Source: a virus. Taken from it: a DNA stretch of 16,029 nucleotides. Below, one piece after another: positions 1 through 16,029 of the stretch; the stretch's first letter is position 1; every line of letters begins with the position of its first letter. The notes under the pieces are model-generated. The model was not told the origin of the DNA, searched no databases, and was given only the letters and a program-made list of their open reading frames with translations. The DNA lies in UHGV virus genome UHGV-0264118; one strand, written 5' to 3'. The position numbers were made by a program, and so were the translations under genes.

Positions 1-107
1 TGGTACGAGCGCTGAACAAAATGACGAAAGCAGGTATGCCTGAAAGCGTGCGTATTGCCTGAAAACACAACCCGCTACGGGGGAGACTTACCCGAAATCT
101 GATTTAT

Positions 108-290
108 TCAACAAAGCCCCAGCGTTCCTACAAAACGGGAATTTCGGTCAATCATCCAGTAGCGACCAACTTTTATAGCGGGTGGGGCCATCATTTTCCC
201 TTGCGCGTATTTTTTCAGAACTCGCTCACTTGGTGCTAAGTCCCCAAATTCTTCTTTAGCCCAGTCCTGTAAAGTGATTAGTCGAGACAT
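108..290 (-). CDS. xis: Excisionase, lambda Xis-like
   Basis: 60-aa ORF. Motif ITLQDW...APPAIKVGRYW parallels lambda Xis LTLQEW...PPPVKDGREY. A strong Shine-Dalgarno (AGGAGGACAAATG on the minus strand) precedes the start. Lies at the left end of the early-left operon, where xis sits next to int. Confidence 0.6.
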   Translation of the reverse strand: MSRLITLQDWAKEEFGDLAPSERVLKKYAQGKMMAPPAIKVGRYWMIDRNSRFVGTLGLC

Positions 291-429
291 TTGTCCTCCT
301 CTTAGCTGCTGAGGGAGTTTGTGACCGATATATCTGACATGATATTAAGCTCATGGCAGGTACATCTCTTGACTGGTCATAGAGATAAATTTAATGCTGA
401 GAAATGCAGTATTGAATTTATCAATTTTT

Positions 430-669
430 CTATTTCCTGCGTATGGCACGTAACTTCTTAATGTGTTCTGCCGTTTCGATCTCTTCTGCTATCCGATCTG
501 CATCAGCTTTATTCACAGGTTCAAAGTCATGATTAAAGCGGAACATGCTGGCGATACATGTTCTGCCTTTTCGGATGTAGTGAACTTTGTTGTGGGTAGA
601 ACGCAGGATTTTGCAGGGAGTGCCGTGGTGGTCGACGTACCAGGTGTTAGGAAAAATGATTCTGAACAT
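430..669 (-). CDS. Hypothetical early-left-operon protein (79 aa)
   Basis: ORF with a GAGGTG Shine-Dalgarno about 7 nt upstream of the ATG on the minus strand. Same orientation as the neighbouring early genes. No family recognised. Confidence 0.45.
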   Translation of the reverse strand: MFRIIFPNTWYVDHHGTPCKILRSTHNKVHYIRKGRTCIASMFRFNHDFEPVNKADADRIAEEIETAEHIKKLRAIRRK

Positions 670-716
670 TTTTACACCTCAGTTGGACGATGTTGAAATT
701 TGCTGCTTTGAGGCCA

Positions 717-935
717 TCACAATCCCCATTGTTTGTTCTTAAGTTCGATCTCCTCCTGGCAACTTGCACAAGTCCGACAACCCTGAACGGCCAGGCGTCT
801 TCGTTCATCTATGGGATCGCCACACTTACAACAATGAGTGGCAGATATAGCCTGGTGGTTCAGACGACGCATTTTTATTGCTGTATTGCGCTGTAATTCT
901 TCGATTTCTGATGCTGAATCAATGATGTCTGCCAT
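717..935 (-). CDS. TraR/DksA-family C4 zinc-finger protein (lambda orf73-like)
   Basis: 72-aa ORF with paired Cys motifs (CCKCGD ... CRTCASC) in the TraR/DksA arrangement. Sits in the lambda ea/orf region between xis and exo. Confidence 0.65.
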   Translation of the reverse strand: MADIIDSASEIEELQRNTAIKMRRLNHQAISATHCCKCGDPIDERRRLAVQGCRTCASCQEEIELKNKQWGL

Positions 936-1033
936 CTTCCATTAATCCCTGAATTGTTGGTTAATACGCTTGAGGGTGAATGCGAATAATAAAAAAGGAG
1001 CCTGTAGCTCCCTGATGATTTTGCTTTTCATGT

Positions 1034-1249
1034 TCATCGCTCCTTAAAGAAGCCGTTTAACATGCCGATCGCCAGGCTTAAATGAGTCGGTGTGAATCCC
1101 ATCAGCGTTACCGTTTCGCGGTGCTTCTTCAGTACGCTACGGCAAATGTCATCGACGTTTTTATCCGGAAACTGCTGTCTGGCTTTTTTGATTTCAGAAT
1201 TAGCCTGACGGGCAATGCTGCGAAGGGCGTTTTCCTGCTGAGGTGTCAT
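1034..1249 (-). CDS. Small early-left protein, lambda orf61-like
   Basis: Predicted ORF 1034..1315. The ATG at 1249 (MTPQQENALRS...) is the likely true start. The upstream in-frame ATG at 1315 lies only 11 nt after the stop of the preceding gene and has no Shine-Dalgarno. Start is uncertain. Confidence 0.45.
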   Translation of the reverse strand: MTPQQENALRSIARQANSEIKKARQQFPDKNVDDICRSVLKKHRETVTLMGFTPTHLSLAIGMLNGFFKER

Positions 1250-1325
1250 TGAACAAGTCCCATGTCGGCAAGCATAAGCACACAGAATATGAAGCCCGCT
1301 GCCAGAAAAATGCATTCAGTGGTTG

Positions 1326-1517
1326 TCATACCTGGTCTCTCTCATCTGCTTCTGCTTTCGCCACCATCATTTCCAGCTTTTGTGAAAGGGATGCGGCTAA
1401 CGTATGAAATTCTTCGTCTGTTTCTACTGGTATTGGCACAAACCTGACTCCAATTTGAGCGAGGCTATGTGCCATCTCGATACTCGTTCTTAACTCAACG
1501 GGAGATGCTTTATGCAT
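1326..1517 (-). CDS. Small early-left protein, lambda orf63-like
   Basis: 63-aa ORF ([23 protein letters not shown]...), near-identical by recollection to lambda orf63. Overlaps the 3' end of the next ORF as in lambda. Confidence 0.6.
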   Translation of the reverse strand: MHKASPVELRTSIEMAHSLAQIGVRFVPIPVETDEEFHTLAASLSQKLEMMVAKAEADERDQV

Positions 1518-1678
1518 ACAGCCCCCCGTTTATTATTTATCTTCTCAGCCAGCCGCTGTGCTTTCAGTGGATTTCTGATAACAGAAAGGCCGGGAAATAC
1601 CCAGCCTCGCTTTGTAATGGAGTAGACGAAAGTGATCGCGCCTACCCGGATATTATCGTGAGGATGCGTCATCGCCAT
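1490..1678 (-). CDS. Small early-left protein, lambda orf60a-like
   Basis: 62-aa ORF (..[18 protein letters not shown]..) matching recollection of lambda orf60a. Its 5' end overlaps the exo stop by 10 nt. Start may be the ATG at 1672. Confidence 0.6.
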
Positions 1679-2349
1679 TGCTCCCCAAATACAAAACCAA
1701 TTTCAGCCAGTGCCTCGTCCATTTTTTCGATGAACTCCGGCACCATCTCGTCAAAACTCGCTATGTACTTTTCATCCCGCTCAATCACGACATAATGCAG
1801 GCCTTCACGCTTCATGCGCGGGTCATAGTTGGCAAAGTACCAGGCATCTTTTCGCGTCACCCACATGCTGTACTGCACCTGGGCCATGTAAGCCGATTTT
1901 ATTGCCTCAAAACCACCGAGCCGGAATTTCATGAAATCCCGGGAGGTAAACGGGCATTTCAGTTCAAGGCCGTTGCCGTCACTGCATAAACCATCTGGAG
2001 AGCAGGCGGTGCGCATACTTTCGTCGCGATAGATGATCGGGGATTCAGTAACATTCACGCCGGAAGTGAATTCAAACAGGGTTCTGGCGTCGTTCTCGTA
2101 CTGTTTTCCCCAGGCCAGCGCCTTAGCATTAACTTCCGGAGCCACACCGGTGCAAACCTCAGCCAGCAGGGTGTGGAAGTAGGACATTTTCATGTCAGGC
2201 CACTTCTTTCCTGAGCGGGGCTTTGCTATCACGTTGTGAACTTCTGAAGCGGTGATGACGCCGAGCCGTAATTTGTGCCATGCATCATCCCCCTGTTCGA
2301 CAGCTCTCACGTCGATCCCGGTACGCTGCAGGATAATGTCCGGTGTCAT
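1669..2349 (-). CDS. exo: Lambda-type 5'-3' exonuclease (Red-alpha)
   Basis: 226-aa translation ([65 protein letters not shown]...GEQWR) is essentially lambda Exo over its full length. Its start overlaps the bet stop (ATGA). Confidence 0.95.
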
Positions 2350-3131
2350 GCTGCCACCTTCTGCTCAGTGGCTTTCTGTTTCAGGAATCCAAGAGCTTTC
2401 ACTGCTTCGGCCTGTGTCAGTTCTGACGATGCGCGAATGTCGCGGCGAAATATCTGGGAACAGAGCGGCAATAAGTCGTCATCCCATGTTTTATCCAGGG
2501 CGATCAGCAGAGTGTTAATCTCCTGCATGGTTTCATCGTTAACCGGAGTGATGTCGCGTTCCGGCTGACGTTCTGCAGTGTATGCAGTATTTTCGACAAT
2601 GCGCTCGGCTTCATCCTTGTCATAGATACCAGCAAATCCGAAGGCCAGACGGGCACACTGAATCATGGCTTTATGCCGTAACATCCGTTTGGGATGCGAC
2701 TGCCACGGTCCGGTGATTTCTCTGCCTTCGCGGGTTTTGAATGGTTCGCGGCGGCATTCATCCATCCACTCGGTAACGCAGATCGGATGATTACGGTCCT
2801 TGCGGTAAATCCGGCATGTACAGGATTCATTGTCCTGCTCAAAGTCCATGCCATCAAACTGCTGGTTTTCATTGATGATGCGGGACCAGCCATCAACGCC
2901 CACCACCGGAACGATGCCGTTCTGCTTATCAGGGAAGGCGTAAATTTCTTTCGTCCACGGATTAAGGCCGTACTGGTTGGCGACGATCAACAATGCGATG
3001 AACTGCGCATCGCTGGCATCACCTTTAAATGCCGTCTGGCGAAGAGTGGTGATCAGTTCCTGTGGGTCGACAGAATCCATGCCGACACGTTCAGCCAGCT
3101 TCCCTGCCAGCGTTGCGAGTGCTGTACTCAT
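2346..3131 (-). CDS. bet: Red-beta single-strand annealing protein
   Basis: 261-aa translation ([82 protein letters not shown]...) matches lambda Bet. A GAGGT Shine-Dalgarno lies upstream. Confidence 0.95.
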
Positions 3132-3136
3132 CCGTT

Positions 3137-3433
3137 TTATACCTCTGAATCAATATCAACCTGGTGGTGGGCAATAGTTTCAACCATGTACCGGATGTGT
3201 TCTGCCATGCGTTCCTGAAACTCAACATCGTCATCAAACGCACGGGTAATGGCTTTTTTGCTGGCCCCGTGGCGTTGCAAATGATCGATGCATAGCGATT
3301 CAAACAGGTGCTGAGGCAGGCCTTTTTCCATGTCGTCTGCCAGTTCTGCCTCTTTCTCTTCACGGGCGATCTGCTGGTAGTGACGCGCCCAGCTCTGAGC
3401 CTCAAGACGATCCTGAATGTAATAAGCGTTCAT
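3137..3433 (-). CDS. gam: Gam (RecBCD inhibitor), short 98-aa form
   Basis: Translation [60 protein letters not shown]... matches lambda GamS. A good Shine-Dalgarno (CAGGAGTTCAGCCATG) precedes the start. Confidence 0.9.
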
Positions 3434-3508
3434 GGCTGAACTCCTGAAAATGGCTGTGAAAATATCGCCCGCGAAATGCCAGGCTGATTAGGAAAACAGG
3501 AAAGGGGA

Positions 3509-3799
3509 TTAGTGATTCAGGCCGTTACCGCGTCCGTCGAGAAAAACTTCCACGAGCAAATCACGGGTATAAGTGCGCTCGATGCCGCGATGCAGATATA
3601 GCCGTCCGCGTAAATTAGCTGATGCAGTCCAGGTACCATCTTTGTGTTTGACCAGCATTCCTGGCATGACCGCACCTCGATTAACGGTCTGCGTTCCGTA
3701 ATGTTGATGAACCATAAAAACTCCTGCCCGTAAGCTGGGCTGCTGAACATATAGAGACTTCTGCGCGTATTCAGGCGGTGGATGGCCGCCGGTTGTCAT
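3509..3799 (-). CDS. Hypothetical protein in the kil/cIII position
   Basis: Predicted 136-aa ORF (3509..3919) begins at a TTG. The first ATG ([11 protein letters not shown]...) at 3799 gives 96 aa with a weak GAGG upstream. GC-rich, no hydrophobic segment, no cIII-like motif. Family not recognised. Confidence 0.35.
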
Positions 3800-4273
3800 A
3801 ACTAAGCCGCCTCGTTGAAGCGACTGAGGTATGAGGTGTTGAGTTGATTTCAGCTGGTCACACCGACGTTCACACGTCCGTTTCACCCCTCGCACTCCCC
3901 GTAGCCTGCTGAAATTCAAGCTGCAGATCTAAGCGGTCATCGCAACGGTGAAGCGGTAAATCAGAAGATTGCCGCATTCCTGTGCCGTTGTGATGGATTT
4001 ATAATACCTATTGCTATTAATCATATCAATACGTATGGGTATCAATCGATAGCATTTGTTGTTATGCTGTTGATACTGAAAAGAATTTAATGTTGAGGTT
4101 TTTTGTGACATTCGACTCAAAATGGATTTTGCAATTAAATAACCAATTGATAACAATGAAAACATCACGGAGAACTAGATAGGCCAAATTACTTGCCACG
4201 AAGATAGTTGTAAGCGTTGATAACAATGGTATTGAGGAGGGATACCCCCGACAATTGCGTCAGGGGGGAGGGA

Positions 4274-4654
4274 TTATTGGGCTTTAATGTAATTTTTCAA
4301 CTTTGCAGTTTGCTCTACAGCGCTAGGAATGCATCCAAACATATTTGCGCATGAGGTTTGAACAACAATTTCGTTCTTATCGTTTCCTAAAGGTGTTTTT
4401 ACAACCTGATATCCAAGCACGGCACTATTTCCAATAGGAGTGTATGTGGAAATTACCGTTTCATCTGCCATCTGAATTTTCCAACCAGAATTCATTGCTA
4501 TCCAAGCTTTGGCTCTCGACCAATATGTATCGCATTGCTCTTTACCTTGACAGTAAACTGGTTGTTGAGCTTGTGCGGCAATTTGGGGATCTATTTTCTG
4601 AGCACATCCAGAGATGCTAATCAGAATAGCTGCTGTAACGAATAGTTTTCTCAT
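4274..4654 (-). CDS. Lipoprotein, likely lysogen-expressed moron in the rexAB position
   Basis: ORF MSMRKLFVTAAILISISGC|AQ... has an N-terminal signal peptide and lipobox (ISGC). The ATG at 4654 has an AAGGAA Shine-Dalgarno 6-7 nt upstream. Lies 48 nt downstream of, and co-oriented with, the repressor gene. AT-rich relative to neighbours. Confidence 0.6.
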   Translation of the reverse strand: MRKLFVTAAILISISGCAQKIDPQIAAQAQQPVYCQGKEQCDTYWSRAKAWIAMNSGWKIQMADETVISTYTPIGNSAVLGYQVVKTPLGNDKNEIVVQTSCANMFGCIPSAVEQTAKLKNYIKAQ

Positions 4655-4702
4655 TGACATTTCCTTTGTTTTGAATATACAACAAATAAATTGGCAAAAA
4701 AA

Positions 4703-5395
4703 TTATCCGTGTTTTCTATATGTCTGCGGCATGCTTCCAATGACTTTACCGAAGATGAACACCCGGTTCATCTCGTCTTTCTCGATCGGGTCCCACGGTG
4801 AGTAGCTCTTGTTATCAGAGATAACCAGCAGCTTATCCTTCATCATTTGCAGGCGCTTTACATGGGCTGTGTCGTCGTACAGAAACGCATAGATACCATC
4901 ACCGTCGAAAGATTTAACAGTGATATCAACGAACAAAAGATCACCTGGTTCGATCGTTCCTGACATGCTGTCACCGCGTACGTTAATGATGCGGATATTT
5001 TCTGCCTTCCTGCCATCGAACATGTGACGAGCATCGTCAAACGAGTACTCAACCGAGCGTAGAACTTCTACAAACTCACGATTGATGACACCCGGCCCGG
5101 CACTGACTTCTATATCAAGAACGTCAATCTTGAAGTATTTGGAATGGCTGACAGCAGGCTTCCCTGATTGTTGACCGTCATTTCTCATCGGGCCTATGCC
5201 TGATGAGAGCCACTCTGTTCGAACACCCAATGCATTAGCTATTTCAACAATTTTTGTTGAGCCGCGCGCGTTGCCGCTTGTCAGTCTCCAGATTGTGGGT
5301 TGAGCTACGCCAGACGCCTTTGCAAGAGCGCCTTGAGACATTCCAGATTGTTCCATCGCTAGGTTTAAGCGATCAGCAAGAGTTTCTTTTTTCAT
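4703..5395 (-). CDS. cI: CI-type prophage repressor (XRE-family HTH plus S24 LexA-like autopeptidase domain)
   Basis: HTH segment MSQGALAKASGVAQPTIWRLTSG. Ala-Gly cleavage site (EVSAGPG). S24 catalytic motifs GDSM and VKRL. The ATG at 5395 (MKKETLADRL) has no Shine-Dalgarno, consistent with a leaderless PRM-type transcript. The predicted TTG start at 5431 is less likely. Confidence 0.85.
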   Translation of the reverse strand: MKKETLADRLNLAMEQSGMSQGALAKASGVAQPTIWRLTSGNARGSTKIVEIANALGVRTEWLSSGIGPMRNDGQQSGKPAVSHSKYFKIDVLDIEVSAGPGVINREFVEVLRSVEYSFDDARHMFDGRKAENIRIINVRGDSMSGTIEPGDLLFVDITVKSFDGDGIYAFLYDDTAHVKRLQMMKDKLLVISDNKSYSPWDPIEKDEMNRVFIFGKVIGSMPQTYRKHG

Positions 5396-5505
5396 AAGTT
5401 TTAATTTATACGCTTGCGTATTGATGGTCAAAACACGTTTTGCTATTGATTGGGTTAATACGCATTGCTATTATCTATTCATTGCAATACCAATAGGAAT
5501 TGATA
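5396..5505. promoter_or_regulatory. Divergent repressor/cro promoter-operator region (PRM/PR-like)
   Basis: Intergenic region between divergent cI and cro. Near-palindrome ATACGC-TT-GCGTAT at 5408-5421 and related ATACGCATTGCTAT at 5457-5470. Candidate PR: TTGATT (5446-5451), 17-nt spacer, TATTAT (5469-5474). Candidate PRM on the minus strand: TTGACC then about 16 nt then ATAAAT, ending just upstream of the leaderless ATG. Confidence 0.5.
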
Positions 5506-5733
5506 ATGACAAATCAAACCATTCAACTCGCAATCAGTATTACAGGTAGTCAAAAACGACTGGCAGATCTCTGCGGTGTAGCCCAACCCACGGTTTGGCG
5601 TTGGCTACACGGTGGCGGAATTGATGCCCGCTATGTAATGAAAATTGTCTCAGCCACTGGTGGAAAGATTAAACCAGCAGATATTCGTCCCGACCTCGCA
5701 CCATTGTTTAACGTGAGTAATTCTTCCGCCTAA
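5506..5733 (+). CDS. Cro/YdaS-like small HTH regulator
   Basis: 75-aa ORF from the ATG at 5506 (predicted TTG at 5500). AGGA Shine-Dalgarno 7 nt upstream. HTH segment SQKRLADLCGVAQPTVWRW. Divergent from the repressor. Confidence 0.7.
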   Translation: MTNQTIQLAISITGSQKRLADLCGVAQPTVWRWLHGGGIDARYVMKIVSATGGKIKPADIRPDLAPLFNVSNSSA

Positions 5734-5763
5734 TCTGCGGAGTTAACTGATAAGGCAATTACT

Positions 5764-6303
5764 ATGCAACCAATTACATACCAACAGACTAGCGGATTTA
5801 CCCCGGCTGCGGTGATAAATCGTTCTCAAACAAAACAGGCGCCAGGCCACGAAAAAATCCGTGATGCCGTTCGCGCCTGGTCGGCTGCAGATAATCAGGA
5901 TGTTGTTGCCGCACTCATTGTGAATGAGTATCGGGAGCAGGGCGGCGGCACCATCGATTTCCCTGATGATGTCAGCCGTGCACGCCAGAAGCTGTTCCGC
6001 TTCCTCGATAACAAATTCGATTCTGAAAAATACCGAAATAACGTGCGTGAACTGACCCCGGCAATTCTGGCGGTACTACCGCTGGAATATCGCGGTTACC
6101 TGGTTGAGCAGGATAGCTTCATGGCCAGGTTGGCTGAAATGGAAAAGGAACTCAGTGAGGCAAAACAGGCTGTCATTCTCAACGCACCACGCCACCAGAA
6201 ACTGAAGGAAATTGGTGAAGGTATTGTATCGATGTTTCGTGTGGACCCAGATCTGGCTGGTCCATTGATGGCGATGGTTACTACCATGCTGGGGGCGATA
6301 TGA
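5764..6303 (+). CDS. YdaT-like or CII-like regulatory protein (family assignment tentative)
   Basis: 179-aa ORF directly downstream of the cro-like gene, in the position of cII/ydaT. Motifs EYREQGGG and LTPAILAVLP recall YdaT-family proteins, from recollection only. Confidence 0.5.
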   Translation: MQPITYQQTSGFTPAAVINRSQTKQAPGHEKIRDAVRAWSAADNQDVVAALIVNEYREQGGGTIDFPDDVSRARQKLFRFLDNKFDSEKYRNNVRELTPAILAVLPLEYRGYLVEQDSFMARLAEMEKELSEAKQAVILNAPRHQKLKEIGEGIVSMFRVDPDLAGPLMAMVTTMLGAI

Positions 6304-6389
6304 CAGGTTCAGAAATGGCGAAAGCCGGTCTGCTGGAACAGAACCGACTTTCAGGTGCAAATCGTAACACACTCATTGCGGGAGGAATT

Positions 6390-7319
6390 ATGGCAAACAC
6401 TGCTGAGATATTCAATTTTCCAGTGCCGGATGCGGCACAAAAGGAGCCGCGCGTGGCAGATCTCGATGATGGTTATACGCGCATTGCAAATGAGTTGCTG
6501 GAAGCTGTGATGCTGGCCGGATTAACACAGCACCAGCTTCTGGTCTTCCTGGCTGTCATGCGCAAAACATATGGCTTTAATAAAAAACTGGATTGGGTGA
6601 GCAACGAGCAACTGTCCGGATTGACCGGGATATTACCGCACAAGTGTTCTGCTGCAAAAAGTGTTCTGGTAAAGCGTGGGATTTTGATTCAGAGCGGGCG
6701 GAATATCGGTATTAATAATGTGGTCAGTGAATGGTCAACATTACCCGAATCAGGTAAGAAAAATAAAGTTTACCTGAAAGAGGTAAATTTACCTGAATCA
6801 GGTAAGAAAAGTTTACCCAAATCAGGTAAAGGCGTTTACCCGAATCAGGTAAACACAAAAGACAAACTAACAAAAGACAATATAAAACCTTTTTCGTCCG
6901 AGAATTCTGGCGAATCCTCTGACCAACCAGAAAACGATCTTCCTGTGGTGAAACCAGATGCTGCAATTCAGAGCGGCAGCAAGTGGGGGACAGCAGAAGA
7001 CCTGACCGCCGCAGAGTGGATGTTTGACATGGTGAAGACCATCGCACCATCAGCCAGAAAACCGAATTTTGCAGGGTGGGCTAACGATATCCGCCTGATG
7101 CGTGAACGTGACGGACGTAACCACCGCGACATGTGCGTGCTTTTCCGCTGGGCATGCCAGGACAACTTCTGGTCCGGTAACGTGCTAAGTCCGGCCAAAC
7201 TCCGCGACAAGTGGACCCAACTCGAAATCAACCGTAACAAGCAACAGGCAGGCATGATAGCCAGCAAACCAAAACTCGACCTGACAAACACTGACTGGAT
7301 TTACGGGGTGGATTTATGA
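6390..7319 (+). CDS. O: Replication initiator O (lambda O-like)
   Basis: From the ATG at 6390 (MANTAEIFNFPVP..., GGAGG Shine-Dalgarno 4 nt upstream). The C-terminal ~150 aa (..YSSENSGESSDQPENDLPVVKPDAAIQSGSKWGTAEDLTAAEWMFDMVKTIAPSARKPNFAGWANDIRLMRERDGRNHRDMCVLFRWACQDNFWSGNV..) is essentially lambda O. The N-terminal iteron-binding domain is related but divergent. Confidence 0.9.
   Translation: MANTAEIFNFPVPDAAQKEPRVADLDDGYTRIANELLEAVMLAGLTQHQLLVFLAVMRKTYGFNKKLDWVSNEQLSGLTGILPHKCSAAKSVLVKRGILIQSGRNIGINNVVSEWSTLPESGKKNKVYLKEVNLPESGKKSLPKSGKGVYPNQVNTKDKLTKDNIKPFSSENSGESSDQPENDLPVVKPDAAIQSGSKWGTAEDLTAAEWMFDMVKTIAPSARKPNFAGWANDIRLMRERDGRNHRDMCVLFRWACQDNFWSGNVLSPAKLRDKWTQLEINRNKQQAGMIASKPKLDLTNTDWIYGVDL
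6741..6853. repeat. Replication origin iterons inside the O gene
   Basis: Five copies of about 17 bp with consensus TACC(C/T)GAATCAGGTAA(G/A) at approximately 6742, 6771 (degenerate), 6790, 6814 and 6837. Followed by an A-rich tract at 6854-6890, as in ori-lambda. Confidence 0.75.
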
Positions 7320-8017
7320 AAAACATCGCCGCACAGATGGTTAACTTTGACCGTGAGCAGATGCGTCGGATCGCCAACAACATGCCGGAACAGTACGACG
7401 AAAAGCCGCAGGTACAGCAGGTAGCGCAGATCATCAACGGTGTGTTCAGCCAGTTACTGGCAACTTTCCCGGCGAGCCTGGCTAACCGTGACCAGAATGA
7501 ACTGAACGAAATCCGCCGCCAGTGGGTGCTGGCTTTTCGGGAAAACGGGATCACCACAATGGAACAGGTTAACGCTGGAATGCGCGTAGCCCGTCGGCAG
7601 AATCGACCATTCCTGCCATCACCCGGGCAGTTTGTCGCCTGGTGCCGGGAAGAAGCATCCGTTACCGCCGGGCTGCCAAACGCCAGCGAGCTGGTTGATA
7701 TGGTTTACGAGTATTGCCGGAAGCGCGGGCTGTATCCGGATGCAGAGTCTTATCCGTGGAAATCAAACGCGCACTACTGGCTGGTTACCAACCTGTATCA
7801 GAACATGCGGGCCAATGCGTTGACTGACGCGGAATTACGGCGCAAGGCTGCCGATGAACTGTCCTGTATGACCGCACGAATTAACCGTGGTGAGGCTATA
7901 CCTGAACCAGTAAAACAACTTCCTGTCATGGGCGGTAGACCTCTAAATCGTGCACAGGCTCTGGCGAAGATCGCAGAAATCAAAGCTAAGTTTGGGCTGA
8001 AAGGAGCAAGGGTATGA
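7316..8017 (+). CDS. P: Replication protein P (DnaB helicase loader)
   Basis: 233-aa translation MKNIAAQMVNFDREQMRRIANNMPEQYDEKPQVQQVAQIINGVFSQLLATFPASLANRDQNEL... is near-identical to lambda P. Start overlaps the O stop (ATGA). Confidence 0.95.
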   Translation: MKNIAAQMVNFDREQMRRIANNMPEQYDEKPQVQQVAQIINGVFSQLLATFPASLANRDQNELNEIRRQWVLAFRENGITTMEQVNAGMRVARRQNRPFLPSPGQFVAWCREEASVTAGLPNASELVDMVYEYCRKRGLYPDAESYPWKSNAHYWLVTNLYQNMRANALTDAELRRKAADELSCMTARINRGEAIPEPVKQLPVMGGRPLNRAQALAKIAEIKAKFGLKGARV

Positions 8018-8316
8018 CGGGCAAAGAGGCAATTATTCATTACCTGGGGACTCATAAGAAATTCTGTGCGCAGGACGTTGCCGCGGTAACAGGCGCAACG
8101 GTAACCAGCATAAATCAGGCTGCGGCTAAAATGGCACGGGCAGGTCTTCTGGCTATCGAAGGTAAGGTCTGGCGAACGGTGTATTACCGGTTTGCTACCA
8201 GAGAAGAACGGGAAGGAAAGGTGAGCACGAATCTGATTTTTAAGGAGTGTCGCCAGAGTGCCGCGATGAAACGGGTATTGAGGGTATATAAAAGAACATC
8301 AATGGGTACACAATGA
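8014..8316 (+). CDS. ren: Ren protein
   Basis: 100-aa translation MTGKEAIIHYLGTHKKFCAQDVAAVTGATVTSINQAAAKMARAGLLAIEGKVWRTVYYRFATREEREGK... matches lambda Ren. Start overlaps the P stop. Confidence 0.85.
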   Translation: MTGKEAIIHYLGTHKKFCAQDVAAVTGATVTSINQAAAKMARAGLLAIEGKVWRTVYYRFATREEREGKVSTNLIFKECRQSAAMKRVLRVYKRTSMGTQ

Positions 8317-8383
8317 TGAAACAGGTGAGTTGAGTTCAAACTGTAGTACAATTCTCTCCAGTTTGAACAGGAAAGAATATTCT

Positions 8384-8716
8384 ATGAACCCTTATATTTA
8401 TCTTGGTGGTGCAATACTTGCAGAGGTCATTGGTACAACCTTAATGAAGTTTTCAGAAGGTTTTACACGGTTATGGCCATCTGTTGGTACAATTATTTGT
8501 TATTGTGCATCATTCTGGTTATTAGCTCAGACGCTGGCTTATATTCCTACAGGGATTGCTTATGCTATCTGGTCAGGAGTCGGTATTGTCCTGATTAGCT
8601 TACTGTCATGGGGACTTTTCGGCCAACGGCTGGACCTGCCAGCCATTATAGGCATGATGTTGATTTGTGCCGGTGTGTTGGTTATTAATTTATTGTCACG
8701 AAGCACACCACATTAA
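8384..8716 (+). CDS. emrE: SMR-family multidrug efflux transporter EmrE
   Basis: 110-aa translation from the ATG at 8384 (MNPYIYLGGAILAEVIGTTLMKFSEGFTRLWPSVGTIICYCASFWLLAQTLAYIPTGIAYAIWSGVGIVLISLLSWG...) matches E. coli EmrE with its four transmembrane helices. The predicted ORF starts earlier at 8330. Confidence 0.95.
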   Translation: MNPYIYLGGAILAEVIGTTLMKFSEGFTRLWPSVGTIICYCASFWLLAQTLAYIPTGIAYAIWSGVGIVLISLLSWGLFGQRLDLPAIIGMMLICAGVLVINLLSRSTPH

Positions 8717-8747
8717 AAATAATTTGTTTCTAAACGACTAAAATATG

Positions 8748-8780
8748 GAGGCTCTTATATTTATATGAGCCTCGTTTTAT
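8748..8780 (+). terminator. Rho-independent terminator downstream of emrE
   Basis: Perfect 7-bp stem GAGGCTC (8748-8754) / GAGCCTC (8767-8773) with a 12-nt loop, followed by GTTTTATGCTTTTT. Confidence 0.6.
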
Positions 8781-8972
8781 GCTTTTTGTTAATGTCTTTA
8801 TTTTTTTATGTATTCTTTTGTGCTTTCAAGATTATGGCGTAAGAAAATTGCAATACGATTATTGTTGTATATTCAAGATAATGTGACCTTAATTGTCTTT
8901 TTAAATAAAAATTAAACAAAAATTATATCCCACCACTAAGGTTTATAAAAGCATACGTTAGCAGGTGTCACC

Positions 8973-10499
8973 ATGAAAAAAGCCATAGCATATATGCGAT
9001 TTTCATCACCAGGTCAGATGTCTGGCGACTCATTAAACCGACAGAGAAGACTTATTGCTGAATGGTTAAAGGTAAATAGTGATTATTATCTTGATACCAT
9101 AACATATGAAGATTTAGGATTAAGTGCATTCAAAGGAAAGCATGCACAATCAGGAGCTTTTTCGGAATTTTTAGATGCTATAGAGCATGGTTATATATTG
9201 CCAGGAACTACATTGTTAGTTGAAAGTCTGGACAGACTTTCAAGAGAAAAAGTCGGTGAAGCGATTGAACGTCTGAAATTGATTTTGAATCACGGTATTG
9301 ATGTTATAACTCTTTGCGACAATACAGTCTATAATATTGACTCTTTGAATGAGCCATATTCATTAATAAAAGCCATACTTATAGCACAAAGGGCAAATGA
9401 AGAAAGCGAGATAAAGTCAAGTCGGGTTAAATTATCATGGAAGAAAAAACGGCAGGATGCACTGGAATCAGGTACGATTATGACGGCGTCTTGTCCGAGA
9501 TGGCTCTCCTTAGATGACAAAAGAACGGCTTTTGTTCCAGACCCCGACAGGGTGAAAACTATTGAGCTAATTTTTAAACTCAGGATGGAAAGGCGCTCAT
9601 TGAATGCAATAGCCAAGTATTTAAATGATCATGCTGTAAAGAATTTCTCAGGAAAAGAAAGTGCATGGGGACCTTCTGTAATTGAAAAATTATTAGCGAA
9701 TAAAGCTCTGATAGGTATATGCGTACCTTCATATCGTGCAAGAGGTAAAGGAATAAGTGAAATCGCTGGCTATTATCCCAGAGTCATATCAGATGATTTG
9801 TTTTACGCTGTACAGGAAATTCGGTTGGCACCTTTTGGTATTAGCAATAGTAGCAAAAATCCTATGTTGATAAATCTACTTCGAACAGTTATGAAGTGCG
9901 AGGCTTGTGGTAATACCATGATTGTTCATGCGGTATCTGGAAGTTTGCATGGCTATTATGTTTGTCCGATGAGAAGACTGCATCGATGTGACAGGCCATC
10001 AATAAAGAGAGATTTGGTTGATTATAATATCATTAATGAGTTGCTTTTTAATTGTAGTAAAATCCAACCAGTTGAAAACAAGAAAGATGCTAATGAAACT
10101 TTAGAGTTGAAAATTATTGAGCTCCAGATGAAAATTAATAATTTAATTGCTGCATTATCTGTTGCGCCTGAAGTTACCGCTATAGCAGAAAAAATCAGAG
10201 TATTAGATAAGGAATTACGAAGGGCTTCTGTATCATTAAAAACTTTGAAGAGTAAAGCGGTGAGTTCACTTGGTGATTTTCATGCTATTGACTTAACCAG
10301 TAAAAATGGGCGAGAGCTATGTCGTACACTTGCCTATAAAACATTCGAAAAAATCATAATCAATACAGATAATAAAACCTGTGATATCTATTTTATGAAT
10401 GGCATTGTTTTTAAACACTATCCTTTAATGAAAACAATATCCGCCCAGCAGGCGATAAGTACTCTCAAATATATGGTTGATGGTGAGGTTTATTTTTGA
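8973..10499 (+). CDS. ybcK: Large serine recombinase (YbcK-like)
   Basis: 508 aa. N-terminal resolvase-type catalytic motif AIAYMRFSSPGQ (Y-x-R-x-S nucleophile). C-terminal Cys cluster (CEACGN...CPMRRLHRCD) and a coiled-coil segment typical of large serine recombinases. AGGTG Shine-Dalgarno upstream. Markedly AT-rich gene. Confidence 0.85.
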   Translation: MKKAIAYMRFSSPGQMSGDSLNRQRRLIAEWLKVNSDYYLDTITYEDLGLSAFKGKHAQSGAFSEFLDAIEHGYILPGTTLLVESLDRLSREKVGEAIERLKLILNHGIDVITLCDNTVYNIDSLNEPYSLIKAILIAQRANEESEIKSSRVKLSWKKKRQDALESGTIMTASCPRWLSLDDKRTAFVPDPDRVKTIELIFKLRMERRSLNAIAKYLNDHAVKNFSGKESAWGPSVIEKLLANKALIGICVPSYRARGKGISEIAGYYPRVISDDLFYAVQEIRLAPFGISNSSKNPMLINLLRTVMKCEACGNTMIVHAVSGSLHGYYVCPMRRLHRCDRPSIKRDLVDYNIINELLFNCSKIQPVENKKDANETLELKIIELQMKINNLIAALSVAPEVTAIAEKIRVLDKELRRASVSLKTLKSKAVSSLGDFHAIDLTSKNGRELCRTLAYKTFEKIIINTDNKTCDIYFMNGIVFKHYPLMKTISAQQAISTLKYMVDGEVYF

Positions 10500-10610
10500 G
10501 TAATAATCACTTTTTCAACCGTGCTATAGTAAGAAAGTTAGGTAAGTACAATAAAATTATCTATCCTGAACGAAGCGTCCTGAGCTATGGTTTTACTATA
10601 GAGACTGCCA

Positions 10611-10934
10611 ATGGATGCTGGCGTTCTCGTTCTAGCAGTTCAACAATACCCAATCACAAAACAATTCACTGATAACGAACTTTGCACACTCGCCTGGTTA
10701 TGGCGAGCAGGGAATGTGATGTTAATTACCTACCAGAACGTTACTCCTCTTCTTCAGGTTGCGGAGCATCGTGAAGCTGGTCGCTTCACTTCTATCGAGC
10801 AAGAATATCCCCAGATACTCAATAAGGCACAGGCAATCCTTGCCAGAGAAACGGCACATGTAAAATTCCGGCCGTGGCAGGATGATAAGTGGAGTCGAGT
10901 TTTGCCGCATTTACGTTCGGATCGATTACAGTAG
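10611..10934 (+). CDS. Hypothetical protein (107 aa), coding status uncertain
   Basis: ORF with a weak ribosome-binding site. No recognisable family. Flanked upstream by a 9-bp inverted repeat. Confidence 0.3.
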   Translation: MDAGVLVLAVQQYPITKQFTDNELCTLAWLWRAGNVMLITYQNVTPLLQVAEHREAGRFTSIEQEYPQILNKAQAILARETAHVKFRPWQDDKWSRVLPHLRSDRLQ

Positions 10935-11395
10935 ATTCCAATTAACAATGAGAAACACATAGCCACCCCGTGGTATTGAAACCATATAATGTTGGATTTG
11001 AAAACAGATCTTTTTCCATGTATTAATAACTACATCCCCGCGAGTGATTCAAAAAGGAGGGCCCAATTTTGTCCGAGTTTTTGTATTCCCCCGCATGCCG
11101 CTGCGGAGCACTACATCTGAGTGTCTGACTAGGGGATAAAATTAGACTGGATAGTGAGAAGAAAGTGGCGTGCTAGGCTGTGCCGAGTGCTACCAGTACA
11201 CCCTGGGGGTGTGCAGCTTTCGCCGAGACTGTAGTGGGTATCGGTTAATGCACGAAAAACCGAGAGGTCAGACAACCAATTTGCCGTAGGATTGTTTCCG
11301 GTGCGATACCGGTGTACTAACTGAAAGCAATGCGAAAAAGCATAAACTCGGTCCTTCAGTCGCCCTACACACTATTTACTAAGAAGGGCTAAAGC

Positions 11396-11752
11396 ATGGA
11401 TACAATTATCACATGGATGGGAGATCGTCTGTTGGGGTGGATAACAAACAAATCCGATCTGCGGCAGAGGGCAATCACTGGATTAACTCCTGCGATTTAT
11501 TCAACAATTTTATATACTGAAAAATTAAAACGTGGTGAGCCTAATAACCCAAACGAAGAAGAAAAACTTTATAGGCTTTGGTATGAAGCGTCTTCCCAAG
11601 TCGTAGACTTTGATCGAGAGCTGGCTAAAAGATGTTTAGATAAATCAGAATATTGGCTTCATTCTGAATTATATAGCCCTGAGAAAGTTGGAGAGCTAAA
11701 CATTTCTTTGGTTGGTATGAAGGCAACGCTTGAAGGAATAAAGCACAATTAA
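11396..11752 (+). CDS. Hypothetical protein (118 aa)
   Basis: AT-rich ORF (MDTIITWMGDRLLGWITNKSDLRQRAITGL...) with an AAGGG Shine-Dalgarno about 9 nt upstream. No recognised family. Preceded by a ~430 bp non-coding GC-richer region. Confidence 0.45.
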   Translation: MDTIITWMGDRLLGWITNKSDLRQRAITGLTPAIYSTILYTEKLKRGEPNNPNEEEKLYRLWYEASSQVVDFDRELAKRCLDKSEYWLHSELYSPEKVGELNISLVGMKATLEGIKHN

Positions 11753-11841
11753 AACCTTTGATTTGCGATAATCAACTCGCCATAATCATGTCATCGGAGC
11801 CTGAACAACTCCGGTGACTTCTGCGCTAAACGGGGACGTTT

Positions 11842-11943
11842 ATGCGCACACACAATCCAAACTCTCTTCTCCCTCCACAGATGCAGAAATGCACCTGCGA
11901 TATATTGTATCCAGCGTTTGACCTCTGCGGAGGTGAAGCGTGA
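11842..11943 (+). CDS. ylcH: Small protein YlcH-like (33 aa)
   Basis: Translation [33 protein letters not shown]. Its stop overlaps the GTG start of ybcN (GTGA). Below the 60-aa cutoff of the ORF track, found by manual translation. Confidence 0.5.
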
Positions 11944-12395
11944 ATCTCCCACAAGATGGCATCAAATTACATCGCGGTAACTTCACCGCTATCGGTCGGC
12001 AGATCCAGCCTTATCTGGAGGAGGGCAAATGCTTTCGCATGGTGCTTAAACCGTGGCGTGAGAAACGCAGTCTTTCCCAGAATGCACTCAGCCACATGTG
12101 GTACAGCGAAATCAGTGAATACCTCATCAGCAGGGGTAAAACGTTCGCTACTCCAGCTTGGGTAAAAGATGCTCTCAAACACACATATCTCGGTTATGAA
12201 ACCAAAGACCTGGTTGATGTCGTAACCGGTGATATCACCACTATCCAGTCGTTACGCCATACCTCCGATCTTGATACCGGAGAGATGTATGTCTTCCTGT
12301 GTAAGGTTGAAGCCTGGGCGGTGAATATTGGCTGCCACCTGACTATTCCGCAGAGCTGCGAGTTCCAGCTGCTCCGCGACAAGCAGGAGGCGTAA
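11940..12395 (+). CDS. ybcN: NinB/Orf-family recombination protein (YbcN-like)
   Basis: 151 aa from a GTG start with a GGAGGTG Shine-Dalgarno 5 nt upstream. Motif [19 protein letters not shown] parallels lambda NinB RSLDQNRKLW. Confidence 0.8.
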
Positions 12396-12565
12396 TGGCT
12401 ACACCGCTTATTCGTGTCATGAACGGACACATCTACAGAGTACCAGATCGTCGTAAGCGTAAACCGGAGCTGAAGCCTTCCGAAATACCAACACTGCTCG
12501 GATATACCGCCAGCCTGGTTGATAAAAAATGGTTGCGATTGGCAGCAAGGAGGAATCATGGCTGA
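12395..12565 (+). CDS. ninE: NinE-like small protein (56 aa)
   Basis: Manual translation [56 protein letters not shown]. Start overlaps the ybcN stop (TAATG). The 3' end overlaps the ybcO start. Confidence 0.7.
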   Translation: MATPLIRVMNGHIYRVPDRRKRKPELKPSEIPTLLGYTASLVDKKWLRLAARRNHG

Positions 12566-12848
12566 TTTGAGAAAAGCAGCGCGTAGTCGGGAATGCCAGG
12601 TAAGAATCCCTGGCGTATGTAATGGCAACCCTGAAACGTCTGTACTGGCACATATCCGGCTGACTGGATTGTGCGGCACCGGTACCAAACCGCCAGACCT
12701 GATTGCCACCATTGCATGTTCTGCCTGCCACGACGAAATCGACCGCCGCACACATTTTGTCGATGCTGCATATGCAAAAGAATGCGCGCTGGAAGGTATG
12801 GCGAGAACACAGGTTATCTGGCTGAAAGAGGGGGTTATTAAGGCGTGA
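12558..12848 (+). CDS. ybcO: YbcO-like Cys-rich putative nuclease (96 aa)
   Basis: From the ATG at 12558 ([64 protein letters not shown]...). The predicted ORF starts upstream at 12519 inside ninE. Confidence 0.8.
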
Positions 12849-13207
12849 ATACCTACAGCATCACATTACCCTGGCCTCCGAGCAATAATCGCTATTACCG
12901 CCATAATCGCGGGCGCACGCACGTCAGCGCAGAGGGGCAGGCATACCGCGATAACGTCGCCCGAATCATTAAAAACGCAATGCTGGATATCGGCCTGGCT
13001 ATGCCTGTGAAAATCCGCATTGAGTGCCACATGCCGGATCGCCGTCGCCGTGACCTGGATAATCTGCAAAAAGCCGCTTTTGACGCACTCACTAAAGCAG
13101 GTTTCTGGCTGGATGATGCTCAGGTCGTTGATTACCGCGTTGTGAAGATGCCTGTTACCAAAGGTGGGAGGCTGGAACTGACCATCACCGAAATGGGGAA
13201 TGAATGA
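12845..13207 (+). CDS. rusA: Holliday-junction resolvase RusA
   Basis: 120-aa translation [104 protein letters not shown]... matches E. coli RusA. Confidence 0.95.
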
Positions 13208-13344
13208 TGTTTGAGTTTTATATGGCAGAACGTCTTCGCCACCGCTGGGGGCGTCTGCGCTTATATCGTTTCCCCGGTTCTGTTTTGACCGATTACCGAA
13301 TACTGAAGAATTACGCCAAAACCCTGACAGGAGCAGGAGTATGA
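13204..13344 (+). CDS. ylcG: YlcG-like small protein (46 aa)
   Basis: Manual translation [46 protein letters not shown]. Start overlaps the rusA stop (ATGA). Confidence 0.55.
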
Positions 13345-13429
13345 AGTCAGAGATAACAATCAACTAATACTGTTTCGTTGATTTTTGCTTGTAATTGGCG
13401 TTCTGGTCTGATTTTTGTGGAGTAAGTTG

Positions 13430-13813
13430 ATGCGTGATATTCAGATGGTTCTTGAGCGTTGGGGAGCGTGGGCGGCTAATAATCATGAAGATGTGACCTG
13501 GTCGTCCATTGCCGCCGGTTTTAAGGGATTAATTACTTCAAAAGTAAAATCTCGCCCGCAATGTTGTGACGATGACGCGATGATCATTTGCGGGTGCATG
13601 GCCCGTCTGAAAAAGAACAACAGCGATTTGCACGATTTATTAGTAGATTATTATGTAGTCGGTATGACATTCATGTCACTGGCAGGTAAGCATTGCTGCT
13701 CTGATGGTTATATCGGGAAAAGGTTACAGAAGGCTGAGGGCATAATTGAAGGGGTGTTAATGGCATTAGATATCCGGTTAGAGATGGATATCGTTGTTAA
13801 TAACTCTAATTAA
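13430..13813 (+). CDS. quuD: Late-gene antiterminator Q, phage 82 type (QuuD-like)
   Basis: 127 aa from the ATG at 13430 ([34 protein letters not shown]...[16 protein letters not shown]...). GGAGTAAG Shine-Dalgarno upstream. The predicted TTG start at 13415 is less likely. Confidence 0.85.
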
Positions 13814-13846
13814 TACGCCAATTATTTACTAAAAGTTATTAAAAAT

Positions 13847-13865
13847 GGGGCGTTGAAACGCCCCC
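13847..13865 (-). terminator. GC hairpin with a flanking T-tract on the minus strand (candidate nmpC terminator or element of the late regulatory region)
   Basis: Stem GGGGCG (13847-13852) / CGCCCC (13859-13864) with loop TTGAAA. On the minus strand it is followed by ATTTTTAATAA. Confidence 0.4.
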
Positions 13866-13952
13866 AAAAATAAAGGGTAATATATAACAGAAGGTTTGTA
13901 TAGTTAGAAGCAAGGTTGTGCTTCTAAAGGAAGTGGCTTGAGGGAGCCACTT

Positions 13953-13990
13953 ATATGTTGGGGAGGCAAAGCCTCCCACAACATATCTTT
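13953..13990 (+). terminator. Candidate tR'-like intrinsic terminator downstream of Q
   Basis: Stem of about 11 bp, GTTGGGGAGGC (13957-13967) / GCCTCCCACAAC (13971-13982), loop AAA, followed by ATATCTTTT on the plus strand. Lies about 145-170 nt downstream of the Q stop. Confidence 0.45.
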
Positions 13991-14001
13991 TAGTAATCAA
14001 A

Positions 14002-15084
14002 TTAGAACTGGTAAACCATACCTACAGCAACGATATCATCGGTAGCAACGCCAGATGCTTTCGTGAAATCGCTCTTATCAATCAGGTTGATTTTGTAGTC
14101 AACAAAAGTGGACATATTTTTGTTGAAGTAATAGGTTGCACCTACATCAACATATTCAACCAGGTCCTGATCACCCCAAACACCCAAGTCTTTTCCTTTA
14201 GAATGCAGGTAAGCAACGGATGGACGCAGGCCGAAGTCGAACTGATATTGTGCAACAGCTTCGAAGTTTTGTGCTTTGTTGGCAATATGGTTATTACCAA
14301 AAACAGTCATGTTCTGGGTTTCAGAATAGGTGGTGGCCAGATAGATGTTGTTCGCATCATATTTCAGACCAGCTGCCCATACTTCAGCATTTTGACCAGA
14401 AGCATTCAGACCGTTGTTACCGTAGATAACCTGATTATTAGTGCGATCAGATTTAGCATAGGTTGCACCCACGCCGAATCCTTCATACTCATAAGTAGTT
14501 GAGAAACCGAAACCATCGCCATTAGCTTCAGTTACTTCATTTCGGTCATTTTTGCCCTGATACTGAGCTGCAAAGTTCAGGCCATCAACCAGACCAAAGA
14601 AGTCGTTGTTACGATAAGTTGCAACACCTGTGGTGCGACCAGTCATGAATACATCTGTTTGGGTCCAGGTATCGCCACCGAATTCTGGCAGAACGTCAGT
14701 CCACGCACCGATGTCGTATGCTACACCGTAGTTACGGCCGTAATCGATTGAGCCGTAGTCACCGAATTTCAGGCCTGCAAATGCAAGACGGGTTTTGTCT
14801 TTGGAGGAACCTTGAGATTCAGCGCGGTTGCCTTTGAATTCATATTCCCACTGACCGAAACCAGTCAGTTGATCGTTGATTTGGGTTTCACCTTTGAAGC
14901 CAAGACGGGCATAAGTAGTATCACCATCATCTGCATCATTAGAGGAGAAGTAGTGCTTAGCATTAACTTTCCCGTACAGATCCAGCTTGTTACTGTCTTT
15001 ATTATAAATTTCAGCTGCCTGAGCAGACATCGCCATCAGTACTGATGCAGCTACAGCAGAAATTGCCACTGTTAATTTTTTCAT
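14002..15084 (-). CDS. nmpC: Outer-membrane general porin (OmpC/OmpF family), NmpC-like
   Basis: 360 aa. Signal peptide [23 protein letters not shown]|AEIYNKD. Beta-barrel porin hallmarks and C-terminal ...VAVGMVYQF. Convergent with Q, between Q and the lysis genes. Confidence 0.9.
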
Positions 15085-15672
15085 CGTGAGCCCTTTTTTT
15101 TGAACTATTATTAAAAAATGATGTCACTGCGCGATAAATATTCATCTAATCAATGTGATTATTTCAAGATGTAAGTTTTAGTTTCTCATTTAATTTGTGA
15201 AGTAGATCTCTATTTTTATCTGAACTTTTTCTATCGAAACCTATTTATGGCTCTTATTTGAACAAAAATAAACCTATTAGCTAATTTATATTAATGGCTG
15301 TTATTTATGGGGGTTCTATAATTCGGCAGTTTAATTTAAATCAACTAAAAATAACGTCTGAAATTATTTATTGGTTATTTGTTGAGGTTTTCTTATGTAT
15401 TTGTGGTGGAGTTTTGAACACTCGGTAGCATTCTCATAAATATCATTCAGTGGTTTACGTACGTAAAAAATTGGTTATGCTGTTAAGAGTGGTTACTTCG
15501 TCACACAGCTTAAACCCGCCGTCGAGCTGGTTTTTCCATTTTTTGAGTCTCGATATTAGCTGATAACTCAATACCTGAGTTATTCACTGACTCCGAGTCT
15601 GTTACGTTTCTGCTTTTTTGCGATACGTTGTATTCCCTCAATTTACACCCGCTTTGTCTGCGAGGTGGGGTT

Positions 15673-15888
15673 ATGAAATCCATGGATAAGTTAACAACGG
15701 GTATCGCCTATGGCACCTCAGCAGGTAGTGCCGGTTACTGGTTTTTACAGCTGCTCGATAAAGTCACGCCCTCACAGTGGGCAGCAATAGGTGTGCTGGG
15801 TAGCCTGGTATTTGGCCTGCTGACGTACCTGACAAACCTTTATTTCAAGATTAAAGAAGATAAGCGCAAGGCTGCGAGAGGTGAATAA
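15673..15888 (+). CDS. essD: Class II holin, phage 21 S-type (EssD-like), dual-start
   Basis: 71 aa from the ATG at 15673 ([71 protein letters not shown]). MKSM dual-start motif. GAGGTGGGG Shine-Dalgarno upstream. Confidence 0.9.
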
Positions 15889-16029
15889 TGCCTCCATCAT
15901 TACGAAAAGCCGTTGCTGCTGCTATTGGTGGCGGAGCAATTGCTATAGCATCAGTGTTAATCACTGGCCCAAGTGGTAACGATGGTCTGGAAGGTGTCAG
16001 CTACATACCATACAAAGATATTGTTGGTG
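15888..16029 (+). CDS. rrrD: SAR endolysin (phage 21 R-type lysozyme), N-terminal fragment cut by the window end
   Basis: Translation [47 protein letters not shown]... with a Gly/Ala-rich signal-anchor-release segment. Start overlaps the holin stop (TAATG). Confidence 0.85.

Follow-up and report, generated by a model that had tools for sequence, protein, structure and literature searches.

A complete lambda Red operon in a mosaic lambdoid prophage with an IS903B-truncated xis gene

The gam-bet-exo operon

The stretch of DNA analysed here (the window) comprises 16,029 nucleotides of the virus genome UHGV-0264118. On its minus strand, at 1669-3433, it carries the three Red recombination genes in the order gam-bet-exo, closely coupled and with a candidate pL promoter upstream on the same strand. 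The gam gene (3137-3433) encodes an inhibitor of RecBCD of 98 amino acids in its short form only, bet (2346-3131) a single-strand annealing protein of 261 amino acids (Red-beta) and exo (1669-2349) a 5′-to-3′ double-strand DNA exonuclease of 226 amino acids (Red-alpha). All three were assigned by identity to lambda and by matches in Pfam and the PDB, and Bet also by NCBIfam. The first-pass annotation of this DNA, which had placed three full-length Red genes here, was exact in this respect: the open reading frames have precisely these limits and their products are near-identical to those of lambda. Gam of 98 amino acids blocks the DNA-entry site of host RecBCD, while Exo resects double-strand ends in the 5′-to-3′ direction and Bet anneals the exposed 3′ strands to complementary DNA. 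Jointly, the three proteins serve phage growth that depends on recombination, as well as exchange between lambdoid sequences that have diverged.

In the protein alignment, Exo was identical to lambda Exo at 223 of 226 residues (substitutions N168D, M196I and I202M), and the catalytic residues D119, E129 and K131 were all kept. It matched Pfam YqaJ (PF09588; E = 6e-30) as well as PDB entries 1AVQ and 6M9K (E = 3e-155), 1AVQ spanning residues 1-226. Bet differed from its lambda counterpart only by A255T (260/261 identical). Besides a match to Pfam RecT (PF03837; E = 2.7e-33), it scored 169.5 bits against the NCBIfam equivalog TIGR01913, the cut-off of which is 76.95. Its matches in the PDB covered residues 1-178 (7UJL) and 182-261 (8TFU and chain D of 6M9K), and the C-terminal Exo-binding domain is thereby included in the full-length match. 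Gam was identical to residues 41-138 of lambda Gam at 96 of 98 positions (L22I and S61A), matched Pfam Gam (PF06064; E = 3.4e-65) over model positions 1-98 of 98, and matched PDB entries 2UUZ and 5MBV. The three Pfam matches were all well over the curated cut-offs, and each protein was covered over its full length by its solved lambda structures. The reading frame of gam is closed by stop codons upstream of its ATG; the 138-residue form annotated in lambda can hence not be produced, and Gam is restricted to 98 residues.

At the nucleotide level, gam-bet-exo differed from lambda at 41 positions, which changed 40 codons, 34 of them synonymously and six non-synonymously. Shine-Dalgarno sequences precede all three starts (AGGAG 7 nt 5′ of the gam ATG, GAGG for bet and AAGGTGG for exo), in agreement with the good ribosome-binding sites noted earlier. 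The coupled overlaps described by the first-pass annotation were recovered in part: bet and exo overlap by 4 nt (ATGA), but gam and bet are separated by a gap of 5 nt. The junction of exo with the orf60a-like gene downstream (1490-1672, minus strand; Pfam DUF1317), which overlaps the end of exo and matches a protein of phage 4A7 over its full length, is again a 4-nt ATGA. No Chi site was found where 0.38 were expected, an expectation too low to be telling.

Gene order and the 4-nt overlap of bet and exo are as in lambda (NC_001416, 31348-33232), and the DNA was 97.3% identical over window positions 740-3515, which include the orf63 and orf60a homologues. However, the similarity stops 82 nt upstream of gam. 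There the window carries a Rac-type kilR, whereas lambda has kil and cIII, and its immunity region is of another type, with cro and cII analogues that are YdaS/YdaT-like. The kilR gene and the YdaS/YdaT-type regulators belong to Rac-like families, and RecE and RecT of Rac would, as an exonuclease and an annealing protein, be functional analogues; the recombination proteins of the window are nevertheless those of lambda (Exo and Bet) and not those of Rac.

The Red module of 1765 bp was covered to at least 80% in 3137 of 5426 complete Escherichia coli genomes, and six of these 5426 genomes carry it with 100% identity. It was covered to the same extent in 188 phage records, including 434, SfI, BP-4795 and many Stx phages. 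Given these numbers, a full Red operon is the normal case in a lambdoid prophage. The module is already known and very common. Since few recombination systems are as well characterised as lambda Red, and the present copy is near-identical to the reference, it has little discovery value. We therefore have very little doubt that positions 1669-3433 of the minus strand hold a canonical, complete and quite ordinary lambda Red operon, and that its intactness says little about the rest of the prophage.

Gene content and relatives of the prophage

From left to right, the window starts with the last 118 nt of the insertion sequence (IS) IS903B and a truncated xis, followed by the genes of the exo-xis region (a DUF4222 gene, a DksA-like gene, a 71-amino-acid open reading frame and the orf63 and orf60a homologues), exo, bet, gam and kilR. 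Next come a leader of ~280 nt, the candidate pL, a gene for a lipoprotein of 126 amino acids, cI and the analogues of cro and cII. These are followed by O with its five iterons, P, ren, emrE, the serine recombinase gene ybcK and a cargo segment of 1.2 kb. The remainder consists of ybcN, ninE, ybcO, rusA, ylcG, quuD, an intact nmpC-type porin gene, essD and the first 47 codons of rrrD.

The closest phages are the Bievrevirus phages 4A7 and 4C10 together with 1W, 3W, Perceval and the PhiR phages of ECOR strains (e.g. PhiR68_2), with 95.7-97.5% identity over 81-88% of the window; for 4A7, 4C10, 1W and 3W, the identity was 95.7% over 88%. The 4A7/4C10 group shares the xis type, the leader, kilR, cI, O, P and the order of the nin, Q, porin and lysis genes. 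All proteins shared with 4A7 aligned over their full length and without gaps, with the exception of Xis. The first-pass annotation had listed the repressor, O, P, Q, the holin and the start of the endolysin as intact, and these genes did align in this way to their 4A7 counterparts. The cI-type repressor (4703-5395, minus strand; 230 amino acids) matched Pfam HTH_3 and Peptidase_S24 and was 97.8% identical to 4A7 cI; its self-cleavage motifs were found, namely an Ala-Gly site, GDSM and KR with the Ser and Lys residues. Inside the full-length O gene, at 6736-6857, lie five palindromic iterons of ~17 bp (TTACCyGAATCAGGTAA) with an A-rich stretch after them, an array that is likely the replication origin. 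P was full length as well. The window departs from 4A7 in that its xis is interrupted by IS903B; in that the slot between cI and pL is taken by the lipoprotein gene and not, as in 4A7, by an ASCH-domain gene together with an open reading frame of 353 codons; and in its cargo between ybcK and ybcN, which differs from that of 4A7 with its esterase.

A further relative of the early region is a prophage remnant at the icd site of strain 504239 (NZ_CP025859.1). Its Red module is 100% identical, the identity over window positions 119-7644 amounts to 99.3%, and it has the same lipoprotein gene. On the other hand, its xis is full length while int is split by IS3, and its late region is inverted and truncated, with no annotated head genes and with one tail fiber assembly protein as the only tail-related product. 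Strain KSC207 carries a full-length relative with 98.4% identity at argU, which continues into terminase, portal, capsid and tail genes.

As the first-pass annotation had called the prophage DLP12-like, the window was compared by blastn to positions 563000-587000 of K-12. The right arm agrees with this description: ren, emrE, ybcK, ybcN, ninE, ybcO, rusA, ylcG, quuD, nmpC, essD and rrrD are colinear with DLP12 at 90.5-97.6% identity, in blocks at 8103-10538 (96.9%), 11757-14043 (97.6%) and 14060-16029 (90.5%). The integration module does not. DLP12 lies at argU with intD/xisD, whereas window positions 119-440 had no match in DLP12 and the window xis, without similarity to xisD, is of the type that adjoins an icd fragment in 4A7 and sits at icd in strain 504239. 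In DLP12, moreover, ren is interrupted by IS3 and nmpC by IS5, whereas the window has intact copies of the two genes, and the DLP12 cargo consists of ybcL and ybcM.

The DLP12 exoD pseudogene corresponds to window positions 1643-1948 (99%), and the next DLP12 base resumes at window position 7706 (peaD, renD). DLP12 therefore lacks bet, gam, kil, the immunity region and O completely, as well as the 5′ parts of exo and P. The exoD/peaD junction has the form of a single deletion from position 1948, inside exo, to position 7706, inside P, with ~2 bp shared at the joint. From these alignments, K-12 DLP12 can be read as the architecture of the window minus 1948-7706, lost in one deletion of 5.8 kb, plus the IS3 and IS5 insertions. 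That the present prophage is less decayed than DLP12 of K-12 was thus rightly noted, as DLP12 has no equivalent of this stretch. Judged by these comparisons, the element is a mosaic lambdoid prophage with early, nin and lysis regions of the Bievrevirus (4A7/4C10) and DLP12 types.

The IS903B lesion in xis and the inducibility of the prophage

The first-pass annotation overlooked a lesion at the left end of the window. Positions 1-118 (plus strand) are the right end of IS903B, consisting of the 3′ end of the transposase gene with its stop codon at 60-62 and the 18-bp terminal inverted repeat at 101-118, and are 100% identical to IS903B copies in 1357 E. coli genomes. Position 118 is also where IS903 terminates in the HK022 annotation; the HK022 reference genome has an annotated IS903 in its own early-left region (6602-7658), the end of which is 99% identical to window 1-118. 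The phage sequence restarts at 119 within xis. The truncated gene (108-290, minus strand; PHROG 629, excisionase) retains 57 of 78 native codons, after which Gly-Leu-Cys and a stop codon are read from the IS. Its product matches residues 1-58 of the 78-amino-acid Xis of 4A7 with 98.3% identity. A full-length excisionase is thus not encoded in the window. As int starts 55 nt past the insertion point in relatives, any int gene would be cut off from leftward early transcription by the IS.

The junction of IS903B and xis was present in none of the 5426 complete E. coli genomes, none of which covers window positions 1-460, and gave no match in the GTDB representative genomes or in IMG/VR. The junction search returned one metagenome contig of 9 kb that ends in the IS. 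By exact-protein look-up, four independent metagenome contigs, all of which break at the IS, encode the identical truncated Xis product; the lesion hence belongs to a lineage that occurs in more than one sample. One of the four, ERZ505488 (15795 bp), is 100% identical to window positions 65-10290 and, judged by its length, should reach to about position 15859. This contig and the window apparently terminate in shared repeats, on the left in IS903B and on the right in the lysis genes, which makes it probable that the window represents a complete, repeat-bounded contig of a short-read assembly.

From the intact Red genes, together with the other genes that it listed as intact, the first-pass annotation had concluded that the prophage may be inducible. 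This conclusion was not supported. It does not hold as a rule, because the decayed remnant of strain 504239 holds an identical Red module, and it is weakened for the present copy because xis is cut by IS903B. An intact block of Red, immunity and replication genes is consequently no proxy for the viability of a prophage.

Previous work has shown that bacteria lysogenic for 4C10 or 4A7 produce phage that form plaques, and that DNA-damaging bacteriocins induce these prophages. With such close relatives, and with the full-length relative in KSC207 carrying head and tail genes, the prophage could be whole and inducible, for instance by mitomycin C, excising and forming infectious particles, with the complete Red operon as a sign of this. 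The window does contain a repressor with SOS-cleavable motifs, replication genes and an origin with five iterons in O, and its early, replication, Q and holin genes are full length. However, xis is cut after 57 of 78 codons and the IS separates int from leftward early transcription. In addition, the decayed icd-site remnant of 504239 combines 100% identity in Red with 99.3% in the early region, while int, the att sites and the morphogenesis genes of the present prophage fall outside the window. We therefore consider a whole and inducible prophage unlikely.

Truncation of xis, at a time when cI, O, P, the origin, Q and the holin gene are intact, would also fit a prophage that is anchored by IS903B but otherwise competent. 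In-place replication by excision-defective lambda lysogens is established. In such a prophage, the SOS response would lead to expression of Kil and Red, replication in place and lysis with few or no excised genomes, and flanking host DNA would be amplified and recombined. The occurrence of the truncated product in four independent contigs, i.e. in a lineage rather than in a single sample, agrees with this scenario. Against it, int, the late genes and the far side of the IS all lie beyond the window, and a Xis of 57 residues might retain partial activity. Anchoring is accordingly a possibility that we put forward with reserve.

The same lesion is open to a third explanation, in which the prophage is a defective remnant as in 504239, and Red, immunity and replication genes are still present owing to recent decay or a benefit to the host. 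Decay typically begins with the insertion of an IS, and DLP12 carries both IS3 and IS5; the 504239 remnant, in turn, demonstrates that an identical Red module can be retained. Yet the late regulatory and lysis genes, which are inverted and truncated in 504239, are intact here up to the end of the window and colinear with those of functional phages. Moreover, the excess of synonymous changes among the Red codons shows past purifying selection, in which benefit to the phage and benefit to the host are not separable. This explanation, too, appears doubtful, albeit conceivable.

Expression of the operon, a hairpin RNA upstream of kilR and accessory genes

In the promoter scan, a candidate pL was located on the minus strand at 4001-4029 (TTGATA and TATTAT with a spacing of 17, 10 of 12 matches). 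It is accompanied by operator-like repeats at ~3988-4046 that are shared with the cI-cro intergenic region (5404-5505). By analogy with lambda, we infer that 4029-4001 functions as pL. Expression of lambda Red needs antitermination by N past tL1. No such arrangement was found in the window: searches of PHROGs and Pfam gave no N-like open reading frame between cI and kilR, the lipoprotein gene matching only a family of unknown function, and no terminator-like site, i.e. no counterpart of lambda tL1, was detected on the minus strand at 3716-4000. A good candidate for an intrinsic terminator (hairpin and T-run) is present only at 1013-995, past the Red genes. In phi80, HK225 and related phages, an intrinsic terminator lies directly upstream of the conserved leader, but it is absent in the lineage of the window. 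Judging from these patterns, expression of Red is probably N-independent here. This would be a difference from lambda in regulation and not in protein membership, shared with functional phages of the 4A7 type.

In the mechanism that we propose, the Red genes would be silent in the lysogen until RecA-stimulated self-cleavage of the S24-type cI releases the leftward operon. Transcription would then start at the candidate pL (4029-4001), run across a structured leader and kilR and continue into gam-bet-exo, and unlike in lambda the operon would be read without an N antiterminator. Experiments have demonstrated that lambda exchanges DNA with defective prophages, among them DLP12, in a manner dependent on Red-beta. 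The earlier statement that an active Red system affects host genome plasticity is plausible in this setting for the time of induction only, since the operon would lie downstream of a repressor-controlled pL.

Several points speak against our account of the operon and its prophage. The promoter scan yielded six sites compared to 8.6 in shuffled sequence, and because of this the pL match by itself carries little weight. Both pL and N-independence are deduced purely from sequence patterns, and a Rho-dependent terminator or an unrecognised antiterminator could be present. Likewise, the functions of the Red proteins in this prophage are read from their near-identity to the lambda proteins. Finally, IS903B may have inserted without further change, so that the remaining part of xis and int follow on its other side, or it may mark the border of a deletion.

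The kilR-type gene for a cell-division inhibitor (3509-3715, minus strand) encodes 68 amino acids and is 100% identical to Kil of 4A7. Its product matched NCBIfam NF008465 (FtsZ inhibitor) below the cut-off of that model, while PF27398 (KilR) is on record for a gene identical to it. The frame is open upstream to an ATG at 3799, which would give a form of 96 amino acids. This ATG falls into a two-hairpin RNA element at 3774-3833 on the minus strand, in which helix 1 (3833-3797) encloses the AUG at 3799-3797 and helix 2 spans 3790-3774.

In a search for remote similarity with the leader as query, the element appeared as an island of ~60 nt common to otherwise unrelated phages, among them HK225, phi80 and phages of Enterobacter and Klebsiella. 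Its exact 27-nt core was found in at least 120 viral contigs of IMG/VR, with 59 distinct versions of 75 nt. RNAalifold applied to 24 versions returned two hairpins. In helix 1, a conserved CAUA is paired with UAUG, by which the AUG is enclosed, and six pairs show compensatory changes; helix 2 consists of GGCGG, a CCAUCCA loop and CCGCC. Over both helices, 98.7% of cells were paired, compared to at most 52% when the partners were slid. Cells changed on both sides of a pair numbered 60, whereas shuffles gave 20.2 +/- 3.5 and slid partners at most 11. Helix 2 and that side of helix 1 which contains the AUG were predetermined by the search pattern; independent evidence therefore comes from the inner part of helix 1 alone. 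The fold of the entire 281-nt leader was non-significant (z = -1.29), the support being limited to the element of 60 nt.

The enclosed AUG starts a short open reading frame, the product of which begins with MTTGGHPPP. HK225 and phi80 have it as a separate frame of 21 amino acids, whereas in the window it continues in frame into kilR to give the 96-amino-acid form. Of the contigs, 107 reach at least 600 nt past the core, and 87 of these encode a Kil homologue in the 4.5 kb that follow it. The position of the element is that of cIII in lambda. No Rfam match was obtained anywhere in the window at E <= 0.1, and a full-text literature search for the core motif retrieved no paper. We also considered a put RNA of the HK022 type. 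The element has no sequence similarity to the HK022 early region and its core motif is absent from both HK022 and lambda; moreover, in phi80 and HK225 it follows N or other genes and a terminator, and not pL directly. The put reading was rejected for lack of support.

That the element controls translation of Kil is a guess. On a broader and equally tentative view, kil-gam-bet-exo might be transcribed N-free from pL through a conserved two-hairpin RNA that encloses the AUG of the 96-amino-acid KilR and, as a hitherto undescribed element, acts in cis on translation of the toxic Kil, or on the fate of the transcript, and on Red. The prophage, its xis cut by IS903B, could also be anchored, and replicate and recombine in place when induced. 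The widespread structured RNA in front of kilR, in an early-left operon without N, is the only item of the window with research potential.

A few accessory genes were noted in addition. The gene between cI and pL (4274-4654, minus strand) encodes a predicted lipoprotein of 126 amino acids, the signal peptide of which ends in a lipobox (...LISISGC), and its sole family match is the above PHROG of unknown function. It occupies the slot of rexAB in lambda, a slot that holds the ASCH gene and the 353-codon open reading frame in 4A7 and a frameshifted Ser/Thr kinase gene in KSC207. The cargo segment between ybcK and ybcN (10500-11760) is variable as well. In the window, it contains an open reading frame of 107 codons for the C-terminal domain of the P22 antirepressor alone and one of 118 codons without a family; KSC207 has the same segment, in place of the ybcL and ybcM of DLP12 or the esterase of 4A7. 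PADLOC found no match among the cargo open reading frames. The nmpC-type porin gene (14002-15084; 360 amino acids) is intact, whereas nmpC is split by IS5 in DLP12 of K-12, and an emrE-type SMR transporter gene (8384-8716; 110 amino acids) is intact too.

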